This document shows, one piece after another, positions 2,713 through 35,821 of a stretch of 42,074 bases of DNA. The position numbers were made by a program, and so were the translations under genes. Origin of the DNA: Patescibacteria group bacterium (lineage in GTDB: Bacteria; Patescibacteriota; Saccharimonadia; CAILAD01; BJGX01); NCBI GenBank assembly GCA_009691555.1, contig SICB01000001.1, forward strand, positions 1-42,074. The letters run 5' to 3'. The notes beneath the pieces are model-generated. The model was given only the letters and a program-made list of their open reading frames with translations, had not been told where the DNA came from and made no database searches. How positions within the stretch are numbered: the stretch's first letter is position 1; each line of letters starts with the position of its first letter.

Positions 2713-3030
2713 ATGAACCTGCGACTCGAAAAGTTCAGCTCGATGATCAAAAAACAACTTGCCCCAATACTGCTCGAGTACCAAATGCCTGGCAGTTCGG
2801 TTAGTGTTAATGGTGTCAAAATCAGCCCCGATTTAAAAATTGCCCATATATATATTTCGGTTTGGGGCAAAGATGCCGAAGCTGTTTTTGAGCTAATCCA
2901 AAAAAACCGCGGTGAAATATCTAAGGCCTTAGCCGGCAAGATCAAATCGAAGTTTTCGCCCAGTTTGAGCTTTCATCTGGATTCGGGCCAGGCCGATAGT
3001 GAGCTGATCGAAGATCTGCTGAAGAAATAA
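2713..3030 (+). CDS. rbfA: Ribosome-binding factor A
   Basis: A 105-aa protein immediately after infB. Size and infB-rbfA synteny fit, and the N-terminal R..K....I...L pattern is typical of RbfA. Confidence 0.75.
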   Translation: MNLRLEKFSSMIKKQLAPILLEYQMPGSSVSVNGVKISPDLKIAHIYISVWGKDAEAVFELIQKNRGEISKALAGKIKSKFSPSLSFHLDSGQADSELIEDLLKK

Positions 3031-3103
3031 TCCGCTCGGCGTGGTAGCCTAGATACTAAAGCTAAGAAAGCTTATTTTAATTATTTCCTAATTATTATCA
3101 ACC

Positions 3104-3149
3104 AATCTCATTAGTCATCACTTTTGCTGCCAAAAGTAATATAAAACCA
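3104..3149. repeat. Hairpin module (H) of the intergenic repeat family, locus A copy 1
   Basis: The sequence aatctcattagTCatcACTTTTGctgcCAAAAGTaatataaaacca has a 7-bp stem (3120-3126 with 3131-3137) and a 4-nt loop. It is near-identical to the modules at 32691-32758 and 33113-33180. Confidence 0.85.
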
Positions 3150-3303
3150 ACCGACTGTGGCTCGCCCCAATAAGCGCCCCAGCCTACCGAACAATCTTTA
3201 TCCAGAATAAACTTGCCCTGAATGTTAACACTTCAGGGCTTCAGACAATCCTGGATAATGATTAGTCCGTTAGCCTGTTGCTTTCTTGGAGCTCGATGTC
3301 GGT
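3150..3303. repeat. 154-nt conserved intergenic core element, copy A (candidate structured RNA or MITE-like element)
   Basis: Same length as 32918-33071, with 8 differences by eye (about 95% identity). Closing inverted repeat is accgac...gtcggt. An internal hairpin lies at 3215-3239 (gccctgaa..ttcagggc), flanked by the inverted pair ttatccag/ctggataa. Confidence 0.85.
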
Positions 3304-3376
3304 GAGGGAAGCGCACCTGCGGCAATAGTTGCTTTTTAATTATTATTAGCTAGTCTCACTAATTATCTCTATTCAG

Positions 3377-3404
3377 ATACCACTTTTGATACCAAAAGTG
3401 GTAT
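3377..3404. repeat. Perfect 12-bp palindromic hairpin, a variant H module (locus A copy 2)
   Basis: ATACCACTTTTG-atac-CAAAAGTGGTAT. It shares the CACTTTTG/CAAAAGTG core with the other H modules and lies about 30 nt upstream of the lnt-like start. Confidence 0.85.
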
Positions 3405-3434
3405 TAAATAAAAAATAATAAAACATAAAAGTGA

Positions 3435-5102
3435 GTGATGCTAGCTTGGTCGTCTAAAGACCACAAAAGAAATCTGGGAGGAGCGCGACTAGGTGCTATA
3501 ATTAAAGAAGCATTAGGAGATTTAATAATCAAACTCAAAGCCCTAGTAAGATTCAAGCACTTCGATTGGCACAGCCTAGCACTAATAATTGCTAGTGGAG
3601 TATTATTATCGCTGCCGTTTGTGCGCTACCAGCTCGGCTGGCTCAGCTTTTTTAGCCTGCTACCGCTACTAGCCCTATTGCAGCGCCTACGAGCGCAAAA
3701 GGCTTCCAGCAAGCGAATTGTGGCGAGTATTTTGCTGGCCGGAGCAATCGATATGTCGATAGTCCTCACCTGGATGTACCAGCTCAATACCGTAGATCTG
3801 CTACAAGACCCACTGACGCGCGCCGTATTTGTGCCTTTCACTCTGGGGCTGATGGTGCTGTTTTTTGCATCGGGGTTTTTGATTTTTGGCTGGCTGGTCG
3901 TAAGGCTCAAAATATCGCTCGACAACAAAAACTCTTTTTTGTTGCTGCCGGCCGCTTGGGTGTTCGGTGAGTTTGCCCGCAGTGTGTTTTTTTCGATTAT
4001 GATGCTAGGCGAGGGCGGAGCTGTCGGTATGCACTGGAACTTCGGTGCGCTGGGGCTGGCAGCTAGTGCCACACCGCTGGTGTATTTTTCAAGGCTTGGC
4101 GGCCTCTTTGGGCTGAGCTTCGTGGTGGTGCTAGCTAATATTGCAATTTTTCAGCTGTGGCGCAGAAAGTTCGTTAAAGTTTCGGTGCTCATCATCGCTA
4201 GCATCGTCATTGCGACTGCGCTAGCGTATTATTTGTACCGTGCGCCATCAAATCCTGCCATCGAGCGGATTGGGTTGGTTCATTTGGGCTCCAACGAAGA
4301 TACCGATTACCAGCAGCCGCTGATCCGATCTATAAAAGACAACGCCAGTGGCAGGCTCGCTACAGTGATATTCCCAGAGTATTCGCACTTGTTTGACGAA
4401 CCCAGATTGCTCGATGAAGATCGCCAAATAGCCCAGCTGCTACTCAAAAATGAAGGAAGCAGAATAATTACCTCCAGGACTATATCTGCAGTAAAGACCG
4501 AGACAAATGCTATTGTAGAACTCGATGTATCGGGCCGGCAAATCAGCGCTCAGGGCAAGACCTTTTTGATACCAGGCGGAGAGTACATACCGTACCTCTA
4601 TAAGGGCATCCTGATTGCCTCCGGCAACTATCGGCTGATAGCCTACCATGAAGGCGAAAAGACAGTCGCTCAGTCCAAAAAACCAATCGAGCCAATCACG
4701 ATTAATGGAGTCAGCTATGGCGTGCTGGCCTGTTCGGGCATTATTGCCCCCGAGTACTATCGGGAGCTCACCAACCGCGGTGCCGAGGTGCTAGTAAACG
4801 CCGCCTCGCTCTCGACGATGGGCATAGGAGCGCAGTTTTTTGACCAGGCCAAGCAAATGGCTCGTTTTCAGGCCGTCGCTAATGCCCGGACACTAGTTCA
4901 GTCGGCCAGAGGTAAGCAATCTTATATAATGAGCCAAAACGGCACCATCCAGATACAAAATGCGTCTGACAGCACTAGCTATATGCAGGGCTCCATACAG
5001 CCCAACAGTACCCGCACTATCTACACCCTGCTCGGCGAATGGACTGTGCTGGCGAGCTTCGTCGGGCTGGTTGTATTTGCTTACATCAATAAAAAAAGCT
5101 AA
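3435..5102 (+). CDS. lnt: Apolipoprotein N-acyltransferase-like protein (polytopic membrane domain plus CN-hydrolase domain)
   Basis: The N-terminal half is multi-TM. The C-terminal nitrilase-type domain shows an E-K-C triad context: VIFPEYS, GKTFLIPGGEYIPY (compare KHHLVPFGEFVP in E. coli Lnt) and VLACSGII. The start is either GTG 3435 or ATG 3438. Confidence 0.75.
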   Translation: MMLAWSSKDHKRNLGGARLGAIIKEALGDLIIKLKALVRFKHFDWHSLALIIASGVLLSLPFVRYQLGWLSFFSLLPLLALLQRLRAQKASSKRIVASILLAGAIDMSIVLTWMYQLNTVDLLQDPLTRAVFVPFTLGLMVLFFASGFLIFGWLVVRLKISLDNKNSFLLLPAAWVFGEFARSVFFSIMMLGEGGAVGMHWNFGALGLAASATPLVYFSRLGGLFGLSFVVVLANIAIFQLWRRKFVKVSVLIIASIVIATALAYYLYRAPSNPAIERIGLVHLGSNEDTDYQQPLIRSIKDNASGRLATVIFPEYSHLFDEPRLLDEDRQIAQLLLKNEGSRIITSRTISAVKTETNAIVELDVSGRQISAQGKTFLIPGGEYIPYLYKGILIASGNYRLIAYHEGEKTVAQSKKPIEPITINGVSYGVLACSGIIAPEYYRELTNRGAEVLVNAASLSTMGIGAQFFDQAKQMARFQAVANARTLVQSARGKQSYIMSQNGTIQIQNASDSTSYMQGSIQPNSTRTIYTLLGEWTVLASFVGLVVFAYINKKS

Positions 5103-32549: not shown

Positions 32550-32592
32550 TTGGTTTCCTTTCCTTGTCACTTACCTTAAAAGACAATTTATA

Positions 32593-32601
32593 ATTATAGC
32601 A
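32593..32601 (-). promoter_or_regulatory. Extended -10 element TGcTATAAT upstream of rplU
   Basis: The minus-strand reading of 32593-32601 is TGCTATAAT. It predicts a leader of about 40 nt carrying the SD. Confidence 0.45.
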
Positions 32602-32690
32602 CTAAAATAGGTGCGTTGTAAAGAACAAAATGCTCTGCGGTTGCTTGCTTGAGAGAGCGCTCAGAGTTTTTTCTTTGTAGTCTTTATAGA

Positions 32691-32758
32691 TTATTTTTTT
32701 AATTAATCTCATTAGCTATCACTTTTGATGGCAAAAGTAATATAAAACCAGCCGACTT
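32691..32758. repeat. Hairpin module H, locus B copy 1 (68 nt, identical to 33113-33180)
   Basis: ttatttttttaattaatctcattagctatcACTTTTGatggCAAAAGTaatataaaaccagccgactt is a perfect 68-nt direct repeat of the third copy. Confidence 0.9.
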
Positions 32759-32770
32759 CTAATTGATTAT

Positions 32771-32837
32771 AGCTCGCCCCAATAAGCGCCCCAGGCTACC
32801 GAACAATCTTGATCTAAGAATAAACTTGCCCTGAATG
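32771..32837. repeat. Truncated, degraded 5' half of the 154-nt core element
   Basis: agctcgccccaataagcgccccaggctaccgaacaatcttgatctaagaataaacttgccctgaatg matches the first ~65 nt of the core. It has one indel and a 14-nt replacement of the gtg junction, and it breaks inside the internal hairpin. Confidence 0.8.
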
Positions 32838-32885
32838 CTAATTGGCTATCAATAATAATTGTTTTTATATTAATATCATTAATTA

Positions 32886-32907
32886 CCACTTTTGGTATCA
32901 AAAGTGG
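32886..32907. repeat. Variant H palindrome, locus B copy 2
   Basis: CCACTTTTG-gtat-CAAAAGTGG forms a 9-bp stem. Confidence 0.85.
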
Positions 32908-32917
32908 AGCAAAAATA

Positions 32918-33071
32918 GCCGACTGTGGCTCGCCCCAATAAGCGCCCCAGGCTACCGCACAATCTTGATCCAGAATAAACTTGCCCTGAATATTAACATT
33001 TCAGGGCTTCAAACAATCCTGGATAATGATTAGTCCGTTAGCCTGTTGCTTTCTTGGAGCTCGATGTCGGC
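32918..33071. repeat. 154-nt conserved intergenic core element, copy B (candidate structured RNA or MITE-like element)
   Basis: The full-length counterpart of 3150-3303. Closing inverted repeat is gccgac...gtcggc, and the internal hairpin lies at 32983-33007. Confidence 0.85.
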
Positions 33072-33112
33072 AGAAACCAGCAGAGGACAGAGTACATTTA
33101 CAGCAATAATAA

Positions 33113-33180
33113 TTATTTTTTTAATTAATCTCATTAGCTATCACTTTTGATGGCAAAAGTAATATAAAACCAGCCGACTT
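33113..33180. repeat. Hairpin module H, locus B copy 3
   Basis: Identical over 68 nt to 32691-32758. It ends about 55 nt upstream of parA. Confidence 0.9.
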
Positions 33181-33235
33181 ATGGGTTAACACGACTATCA
33201 AATATCGGCGCCTAACCTGCTATAATTAGTAGCAT

Positions 33236-34000
33236 ATGGAAAGCTCAAAAAAAGTCATATCAATTGCTAATCAAAAAGGCGGAGTCGGTAAAACCACCAC
33301 CACTATTAGCGTCGCCTCCTACTTAGCTAGGTTTGGCCATAAGGTGCTTTTGGTCGATCTCGACCCTCAGGGCAACAGCACCAGCGGGCTGGCAATCAAT
33401 AAACAGGCGCTCAAGGCTAGTATTTATAACGTGCTGGTCGACAAGACCCCCGTCGCCGAAGTAATCATTAAAACCAAAATCAAGAATCTCGATATTATTC
33501 CTGCTAAGTCGGAGCTAGCCGCCGCCGAAGTCGAGGTTTCGTCTACCCCCGGCCGAGAAAAGATTTTAAAACTAGCGCTTCGGCATTTGCAGTACGATGT
33601 AATTATTATCGACTGCCCACCGTCGCTGGGATTGCTAACAATCAACGCCTTCGTGGCCAGCGATTCGGTCATTATACCCGTCCAGAGCGAGTACTATGCC
33701 CTAGAGGGCCTCTCGGAGCTACTCGATACCATCAAGCGCGTTCGGGTTGGGCTAAACCCAAGGCTCGATATCTTGGGTCTGGTGGTTACCATGCATAATC
33801 GCCGGACCAGCCTTGGCGAGCAGGTATTAGAGGAAATCAAGAAGCATTTTCCATCTAAAATATTTGACACCGTAATACCTCGCAATATACGATTAGCAGA
33901 AGCACCCAGCCATGGTAAGCCAATATACGAGTACGACAGGTTTTCCAAGGGCGCCCAGGCTTACAAGAAATTGACCAAAGAAATAGAAAAGAGGCTATAG
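33236..34000 (+). CDS. parA: Chromosome partitioning ATPase ParA/Soj
   Basis: Deviant Walker A NQKGGVGKTTT, DLDPQGN and IIIDCPPS. A TATAAT lies at 33221-33226, 10 nt before the ATG, and no SD is present. Confidence 0.9.
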   Translation: MESSKKVISIANQKGGVGKTTTTISVASYLARFGHKVLLVDLDPQGNSTSGLAINKQALKASIYNVLVDKTPVAEVIIKTKIKNLDIIPAKSELAAAEVEVSSTPGREKILKLALRHLQYDVIIIDCPPSLGLLTINAFVASDSVIIPVQSEYYALEGLSELLDTIKRVRVGLNPRLDILGLVVTMHNRRTSLGEQVLEEIKKHFPSKIFDTVIPRNIRLAEAPSHGKPIYEYDRFSKGAQAYKKLTKEIEKRL

Positions 34001-35732: not shown

Positions 35733-35821
35733 TAGGTCCTATTATAACATTTTAGAATCACTATTTCGATGTAGTTAAAAACTATTTATTAGTACTGCGA
35801 AATCGCCTATAATATAACCAT

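Follow-up and report, generated by a model that had tools for sequence, protein, structure and literature searches.

Contig SICB01000001.1, assembled from a Patescibacteria group bacterium, carries two 154-nt sequences, core A (positions 3150-3303) and core B (32918-33071), in the 42,074-nt stretch analysed here (the window), and the question raised by this locus is what they are copies of: a folded RNA, or a palindromic DNA element. Comparison of the window with related contigs and loci (designated L002 to L123) identifies cores A and B as paralogues, each a copy of the long-hairpin module of an interspersed repeat that is mosaic, non-coding and specific to the lineage. Re-alignment confirmed the starting observation of a preliminary description, namely that the two cores differ at eight positions and that four of these changes form two compensated pairs. 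The differences fall at core positions 1, 34, 41, 50, 75, 82, 95 and 154 (window positions 3150/32918, 3183/32951, 3190/32958, 3199/32967, 3224/32992, 3231/32999, 3244/33012 and 3303/33071). Pair 1-154 is A-T in core A and G-C in core B, and pair 75-82, in the apical hairpin, is G-C in core A and A-T in core B. The inverted pair ttatccag/ctggataa is present in core A as described; a T>G change at position 50, overlooked earlier, breaks one of its pairs in core B. Likewise, the caggcta/tagcctg helix is perfect in core B and carries a C-C mismatch in core A, and two of the eight A/B changes are pair-breaking. The two compensated pairs are real and exceed chance expectation (P = 8-9e-4 for at least two such pairs arising from eight random substitutions on copy A). 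They are weak witnesses for a pairing constraint; among 57 family copies the closing pair 1-154 is not Watson-Crick in 12, and the A-T state of pair 75-82 is unique to copy B.

Both strands of both cores fold into one long rod, with z-scores against shuffled sequences of -5.8 to -7.6. Folding energies were -54.6 kcal/mol (+ strand) and -71.6 kcal/mol (- strand) for core A (z = -5.8 and -7.6), and -60.3 and -68.5 kcal/mol, respectively, for core B. A coding role of the core was rejected on the basis of the 17-codon ORF (open reading frame) starting at an internal GTG, in which all three substitutions are non-synonymous, as stated in the preliminary description (S>R, N>H and Y>D), and in which further family members carry indels.

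The two cores belong to a large family. Exact-word scans together with profile and covariance-model searches recovered 61 distinct full-length copies, with approximately 77-97% identity to core A, in related Patescibacteria metagenome-assembled genomes (MAGs) and metagenome contigs. In the 18-mer scan of one genome per species, 14 full copies besides cores A and B came from four MAGs of one clade; the MAGs with copies are labelled 'Patescibacteria group bacterium UBA4664', 'ELA521' or 'ELA453'. A 21-mer scan matched 41 metagenome contigs, 40 of them genuine, and the candidate 41st, L071, proved to be a chance word match within GC-rich coding DNA. None of the full copies checked lies inside a greedy ORF call beyond small overlaps, and the family is confined to intergenic DNA. 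Searches of Rfam 15 pointed to no known RNA family: the whole window had no match at gathering score, and positions 3030-3440, searched at E <= 10, gave only chance matches to microRNA and small nucleolar RNA families. BLAST searches of phage and plasmid collections and a scan of viral contigs gave no match to the element, and the genes around it are plainly chromosomal; a phage or plasmid origin was rejected. A full-text literature search found no description of repeats of this kind in Patescibacteria. Two known types of system were also considered and rejected: the template/variable repeat pair of a diversity-generating retroelement, since the differences are not adenine-specific and the copies do not lie within a gene, and a retron, since the 555-aa ORF downstream of core A is Lnt and not a reverse transcriptase.

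The compensation seen between cores A and B persists across the 61 distinct copies. In the 41-pair rod, 97.7-97.9% of cells are paired, with the MAFFT and covariance-model alignments in agreement, and pairing drops to 25-42% when the partner column is slid. Double changes occur in 8 of the 41 pairs (shuffle mean 5.3-5.4), a number reached in 2-4 of 500 shuffles, and compensated cells number 57-63 compared to 20-24 in shuffles, with 0 of 500 shuffles reaching the observed value; for the 61 distinct copies the figures are 63 and 23.7 +/- 4.8, that is 2.7 times the shuffle mean. These shuffle tests overstate the significance because the copies are related. The diversity of paired columns is 2.4-fold lower than that of unpaired ones (0.083 versus 0.202, p = 3e-4). 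The largest covariation signal comes from two middle-helix subfamilies, TCCAG/CTGGA and TTAAG/CTTAA, and the second from the apical stem, GCCC/GGGC or GACC/GGTC. In combination, these results reveal that pairing of the 154-nt rod is maintained at family level by compensating changes. Three observations speak against strictly required pairing: in 5 of 57 copies the two subfamilies are combined into a chimera whose middle helix is broken, 12 copies have the mismatched closing pair mentioned above, and position 34/129, the site of the C-C mismatch, pairs in only 25 of 57 copies. It could also be argued that the element is a neutral, decaying palindromic repeat in which compensated pairs arose by chance or by gene conversion between the arms, without selection on pairing. 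The chimeras, the mismatched closing pairs, position 34/129 and the inflation of the shuffle tests by kinship all fit such an origin, which is nevertheless very improbable in view of the A/B comparison (P = 9e-4), the 2.7-fold excess of compensated cells that no shuffle reached, and the 2.4-fold lower variability of paired columns.

The family alignment also bears on which strand folds. RNAalifold returned a 41-pair rod for the bottom strand (-38.8 kcal/mol) and only 21 pairs for the top strand (-21.6 kcal/mol), on which many of the pairs become A.C and are lost. Of 57 copies, 54 fold more stably as the bottom strand (means of -62.8 kcal/mol for the bottom and -54.1 kcal/mol for the top strand), and changes that keep G-U pairing on the bottom strand are in 2-3.6-fold excess. 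The magnitude of this asymmetry depends on how the pairs are defined. With the minus-strand-derived pair set, G-U and A.C cells stand at 94:14 and parsimony events on a neighbour-joining tree at 40:11, whereas a strand-neutral set, obtained by aligning one arm to the complement of the other, gives 135:108 cells and 59:30 events. The asymmetry was therefore rejected as proof of an RNA, shrinking as it does on strand-neutral pairing, and is suggestive rather than decisive; it points, with moderate weight, to folding of the bottom strand, whether as RNA or as single-stranded DNA.

The rod is one part of a larger unit. The order within a unit is an AT-rich arm (T1 or X), a 22-bp palindrome P, a linker of 10-12 nt, the 154-bp imperfect palindrome, a purine-rich heptamer spacer (GACAG/GACAACA) and, often, an inverted T1 arm. 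P has the form CCACTTTTG-N4-CAAAAGTGG, and in the window the pattern CACTTTTG-N4-CAAAAGT precedes each core. It lies upstream of all 67 full copies that have enough upstream sequence, in 66 of them at exactly 12 nt from the core, and the loop of a core-linked P is always CTGC, ATGG or GTAT and never the complement. The window holds five P sites, all within the two core-bearing spacers (10 matches when both strands are counted, where 0.08 would be expected for the pattern); some P sites have a core and others lack one, and both orientations of the loop occur. The T1 arm, to the left of P, contains one to three tandem TAATCTCATTA motifs, and the alternative X arm resembles, in its outer part, the reverse complement of the last 27 nt of the core. 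Of 63 copies, 40 are followed by an inverted T1 arm, which starts with the right half of P, while the left arm is often X instead. All copies of the core end in (A/G)CCGAC...GTCGG(T/C), a 6-bp terminal complement within the continuous rod, and the unpaired stretches CGCCCCAATAAGCGCCCC and AATAAACTT are nearly invariant across the family. Units are found singly, in tandem (the second locus of the window, L002, L068) or facing each other across a gene (L080, L085, L090, L105).

Both loci of the window follow this plan. At the first, a plus-strand T1 arm with the TCTCATTA motif (3072-3118) aligns with the arms of other copies (module BLAST match 3105-3149) and precedes the P site found by pattern search at 3119-3137 (CACTTTTG-CTGC-CAAAAGT). 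The 12-nt linker aatataaaacca (3138-3149), which on the bottom strand reads as a U-rich tract directly after the rod, leads into core A on the plus strand, recognised as a family member by nhmmer and the covariance model. A short spacer and a second T1-like arm (3304-3379, plus strand) follow, with a weak terminator-like hairpin and T-run at 3319-3342, and then a coreless P module before lnt (3380-3401, CCACTTTTG-ATAC-CAAAAGTGG), the loop of which is inverted relative to the core-linked P sites. An inverted, AT-rich X arm (3402-3462, minus strand) ends the locus; its terminal sequence gatgctagcttggtcgtc resembles the 3' end of the core. The X-arm module matches 3430-3380 (minus strand) at 90%, and the arm was also compared with those of L106, L073 and L045.

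The second locus, read throughout on the plus strand, opens with a T1 arm, a P site (32720-32738) and a 12-nt linker (32690-32750, pattern search and module BLAST), which are followed by a third, half copy of the core (32751-32842) consisting of the 5' arm up to the apical loop (nhmmer model positions 4-80). This half copy belongs to a core subfamily with an 11-nt insertion, CTAGTTGATTA or CTAATTGATTA, directly after (A/G)CCGACTT, represented in the window at 32759-32770 and in L068 (341-494), L070 (145-298) and L114 (56-210); in L114 a full-length version stands at this place. A short T1-like arm, a P site (32886-32907, loop GTAT) and the linker agcaaaaata (together 32843-32917) lead into core B, likewise identified by folding, nhmmer and the covariance model. 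Beyond it, at 33072-33180, a GACAG-type purine-rich spacer is joined to a T1 arm, a second coreless P module (33142-33160), a linker and the first 8 nt of a core (GCCGACTT), the sequence after which the insertion of the half copy is placed, here fused to the parA leader. This parA-side module is lacking before parA in L012.

With the unit in hand, the evidence for transcription of the core can be weighed. A multi-copy family of trans-acting structured small RNAs (sRNAs) would have the arm and P as promoter and operator and the core as a rod-shaped RNA of approximately 154 nt, with its 3' end either at the weak hairpin and T-run that open the next T1 arm or, if the bottom strand is read, at the U-tract. 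Such a family is consistent with the covariation and slower evolution of paired columns, the near-invariance of CGCCCCAATAAGCGCCCC and AATAAACTT, the greater stability of the bottom strand in 54 of 57 copies and the excess of G-U-preserving changes there, the TAATAT/TATAAA motif that lies 6-7 nt ahead of the core start in the type-1 linker, and the terminator-like site at 3319-3342. However, in roughly half of the copies the linker, agcaaaaata or agcaaaacca, contains no -10-like hexamer, and a consensus promoter scan found no convincing promoter reading into the core on either strand. Genes in these genomes carry a TGnTATAAT box just before the start codon (e.g. parA, rplU); within 250 nt of 69 copies the TGnTAnAAT box occurs 21 times, and 19 of these boxes read away from the core and only 2 into it. 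The dozens of copies, the presence/absence and orientation polymorphism among strains described below, the chimeric copies with a broken helix, the shrinking of the asymmetry to 135 versus 108 cells on strand-neutral pairing and the lack of an Rfam match likewise count against sRNAs, which we consider rather unlikely. The core as a stand-alone conserved RNA gene is not supported, and its orientation follows no rule relative to genes, with 18 co-oriented and 14 opposed copies in tandem-gene spacers.

A transcript could also be affected in cis. REP/BIME elements (repetitive extragenic palindromes and their bacterial interspersed mosaic assemblies) and Correia elements can act as terminators or as 3'-end stabilisers of mRNA, and the bottom-strand succession of rod hairpin, U-rich linker (UAUUUUUGCU or UGGUUUUAUAUU) and P hairpin might do the same. 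In all linker variants the bottom strand places 4-5 U directly after the closing stem ACCGAC/GUCGGU, which resembles a terminator, and it is the bottom strand that folds better. Gene context argues the other way: a gene reads into the rod from the side that a terminator requires in 27 of the 61 copies with a scorable gene there, no better than chance, and copies are commoner in divergent spacers (11) than in convergent ones (3). The terminator scan, moreover, did not call the bottom-strand rod and U-tract. A dedicated role as a cis-acting terminator or stabiliser is thus quite improbable.

Comparison between relatives showed that the element differs in presence, number and orientation, including between strains with identical flanking proteins. 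The 89-nt spacer between divergent genes at 35733-35821 holds no element in the window, nor in L112 of the same species, whereas the orthologous spacer is filled with 320-560 nt of arm, P and core modules in six related contigs (L012, L053, L092, L099, L104 and L106) with flanks 79-84% identical. The core in the filled spacer points one way in L012 and L099 and the opposite way in L106. Among contigs with identical RbfA, L109 and L111 are arranged like the window, while in L108 and L110 the core is inverted; the longer of these contigs, L110, has in addition a 196-aa lysine-rich membrane-type gene before the T1-P module. The core is also inverted between the same two flanks in L068 and L110. 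Contigs with identical L21 display three states: half core plus core B in the window, a full-length core replacing the half copy in L114, and, in L117 and L123, a core directed toward rplU without the T1-P module. In L078 and L090 the flanks are 89-91% identical and an inverted T1 arm is common to both, with P-linker-core units of different subfamilies in opposite orientation and a right junction exactly between the P loop and the right half-site. A simple half-site inversion was rejected here, since the units differ in subfamily, arm and loop, which points to replacement and not to a clean flip.

Units, and small genes beside them, have likewise been gained or lost between L085 and both L090 and L078, between L080 and L097 (involving a 113-aa gene), and between L076 and L067, L075 and L094 (involving a 306-aa gene). 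In L076 the 306-aa gene is flanked by a second class of perfect palindrome, TTGCAAGGACTGTCCTTGCAA (300-330 and 1345-1400); L067 has a single TTGCAAGGACTGTCCTTGCAA palindrome (about 225-250) and no 306-aa gene, and in L075 and L094 neither the gene nor the palindrome was seen at the locus. The 306-aa protein of L076 gave no Pfam match; by eye it has a ParB-nuclease-like DGTHR motif. Across these comparisons the breakpoints cluster in or next to P and the arms, but not every junction is inside P: that of L080/L097 is better accounted for by recombination between arms. A type IV pilus-like gene cluster has several copies between its genes (L090 154-6845, L084 517-4302); in it, ORF translations, read by eye, include one prepilin-peptidase-like protein and several with pilin-type N-termini; a 304-aa ORF adjacent in L090 reads as XerC/D-like. 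One pilin-like ORF was searched against Pfam and gave no match. Between the element and the TGnTATAAT box of pilin-like genes, tandem heptamers read (CAGACAA)n on one strand and (CCTCTGT)n or (CTGTTCA)n on the other; they are seen in L084 (3025-3065), at the same locus in L078, in L105 (about 1650-1690) and in the window (33081-33096). Their number varies, with five in L084 and two in L078, and the tract could be a spacer of the phase-variation type.

The clustering of breakpoints brings in a further explanation, namely that P and the core form a dedicated site-specific recombination site, P serving as the crossover and the rod as an accessory or hairpin arm (cf. attC, cer/psi), by which segments of 0.2-1.2 kb including small accessory genes are inverted and exchanged. 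The fixed 12-nt spacing of P and core and the fixed orientation of the loop would be expected of such a site, homology between relatives breaks at P or at the loop/half-site boundary, and the coreless modules of arm, P and inverted arm resemble deletion products of convergent units. Small genes without annotated function lie between units, some of them variably present and one pilin-like. Still, none of the 268 ORFs examined in 8-14-kb pieces around copies links a recombinase to the units, the L080/L097 junction is better explained by homologous recombination between arms, gene orientation relative to the units is inconsistent, and the 4-nt central region of P is atypical of the sites of tyrosine or serine recombinases. 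A dedicated site is unlikely on this evidence. A related proposal, in which P and the rod are a hairpin-dependent recombination site that works as an integron- or shufflon-like generator of diversity without a linked integrase, inverting, deleting and exchanging segments of 0.2-1.2 kb, is best regarded as doubtful, as is the alternative that the rod is a new multi-copy structured RNA.

The rod is thus the hairpin module of a mosaic, many-copy, strain-variable intergenic repeat, and the element as a whole is probably, with moderate confidence, a non-autonomous, recombination-active palindromic repeat similar to miniature inverted-repeat transposable elements (MITEs) or to REP/BIME. The preliminary description had suggested selection on a folded RNA or on a DNA palindrome or terminal inverted repeat; of this, the maintained pairing stands, a folded RNA gene does not, a DNA palindrome within a repeat element fits better, and the core is not the terminal inverted repeat of an identified transposon. 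Such an element would spread non-autonomously and be reshuffled at the DNA level via recombination at its palindromes, carried out either by host recombination or by a recombinase or transposase that recognises hairpins and acts in trans. Retention of the rod would reflect a single-stranded intermediate, most likely the bottom strand, in which the element works as a hairpin or cruciform, and effects on neighbouring transcripts, such as termination or stabilisation by the bottom-strand rod and U-tract, would be secondary.

Several observations weigh against this interpretation. A target-site duplication was not established: the sole candidate, TTTATTAG, occurs on both sides in the filled/empty comparison (exact in L106, with 1-2 mismatches in L099 and L012, the filled sites representing one event), and was rejected since it coincides in part with the outer T1-arm end, which is conserved; other element borders showed no duplication. 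Long terminal inverted repeats are missing from the core itself, which ends only in ACCGAC/GTCGGT. A multi-copy gene resembling a transposase or recombinase was sought near the copies and not found among the 268 ORFs, and no insertion sequence (IS) with matching ends was found in the loci around copies. The sole clean empty site keeps a T1-like remnant, so it may reflect a deletion and not a never-occupied site. Finally, the compensating changes and the G-U excess on the bottom strand also fit an RNA function.

The comparison with known systems is similarly two-sided. Correia/NEMIS elements of Neisseria and other bacterial MITEs such as ERIC, RUP and Nezha resemble the repeat in their length of ~100-160 bp, their dispersed intergenic copies, their imperfect palindromes forming long hairpins, their subfamilies and chimeras, their occurrence in either orientation relative to genes, their insertion polymorphism among strains and their tendency to break short-read assemblies. 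In contrast to these, the present element has no target-site duplication found and no cognate IS in the loci around copies, a 6-bp terminal complement of a full-length rod in place of terminal inverted repeats of 20-30 bp, and a constant association with the 22-bp P at 12 nt, set in arms and heptamer spacers. REP/BIME elements and their REPIN forms, associated with RAYT transposases in Enterobacteria and Pseudomonas, share a short conserved palindrome with a free loop, both orientations, mosaic intergenic clusters, maintained hairpin pairing and a role as rearrangement hot spots. However, P has no 5' tetranucleotide of the GTAG type, a REP doublet is much shorter than the 154-bp rod, no RAYT or IS200-like gene is present among the 268 ORFs, and the repeats occur in another phylum without sequence similarity. 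The element was not assigned to either the MITEs or REP-BIME/REPIN, because terminal repeats with a cognate IS were not found and TTTATTAG is the only candidate for a target duplication. Integron attC sites (e.g. the Vibrio cholerae repeats) are alike in being imperfect palindromes of ~120-150 bp with high similarity within a lineage, one favoured strand and variably present small genes adjoining. They differ in their RYYYAAC...GTTRRRY boxes, absent in all copies here, which end in ACCGAC...GTCGGT, and the copies here are dispersed in both orientations between housekeeping genes (S1, IF2, RbfA, Lnt, L21, ParA/B) with no integrase in the window. Rods of the 6S RNA type, of ~150-190 nt, likewise have a closing stem, internal loops and a terminal hairpin, but are present in one or two copies and not dozens; the family here has no conserved synteny and matches neither the Rfam 6S model nor any other.

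Genomes of the ultra-small Patescibacteria (the candidate phyla radiation, CPR) are ~1 Mb in size and are commonly portrayed as streamlined, with little mobile DNA. A mosaic repeat of this kind would be a main source of strain-level plasticity in this lineage, and it adjoins variably present small genes and lies near pilin-like genes. If a dedicated recombinase or an RNA function proved true, the system would be new in a phylum with almost nothing comparable described. Fragmented MAGs would be a practical consequence of the element. Many contigs start or stop within it, and public short-read assemblies of this species systematically break there (L108-L123, contigs that encode identical RbfA, L21 or signal peptidase): the 10 contigs with identical L21 all break off 56-401 nt upstream of rplU, and L112 ends inside the P module before parA. 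Breaks of this kind are expected of a multi-copy repeat in short-read assemblies.

Gene content read across the whole window is that of ordinary chromosome, without phage or plasmid character. Core A is preceded by the genes for S1, YlxR, IF2 and RbfA and followed by those for Lnt, Fmt, Def, PriA, SecDF, RecJ and HisS. At the second locus, the half core and core B lie between genes for a thioredoxin-reductase-like protein, a lipase-like protein and L21 (minus strand) on one side and for ParA, ParB and a signal peptidase on the other. IF2, encoded at 952-2706, is short at 584 aa, without the extended N-terminal region that many bacterial IF2 proteins possess, as would fit a reduced genome. The start called for lnt (GTG at 3435 or 3438) falls within the inverted X arm and ahead of a TGCTATAAT box at 3494-3502, and the Pfam LNT_N match begins only at residue 54 of Lnt; the start is probably mis-called. 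In several genes the extended -10 box TGnTATAAT stands 7-12 nt ahead of the start codon, as seen at 33218-33238 (parA, with TATAAT at 33221-33226 and the ATG at 33236), 32571-32620 (rplU) and 35733-35821, and boxes so near to start codons suggest leaderless or near-leaderless mRNAs in this organism.

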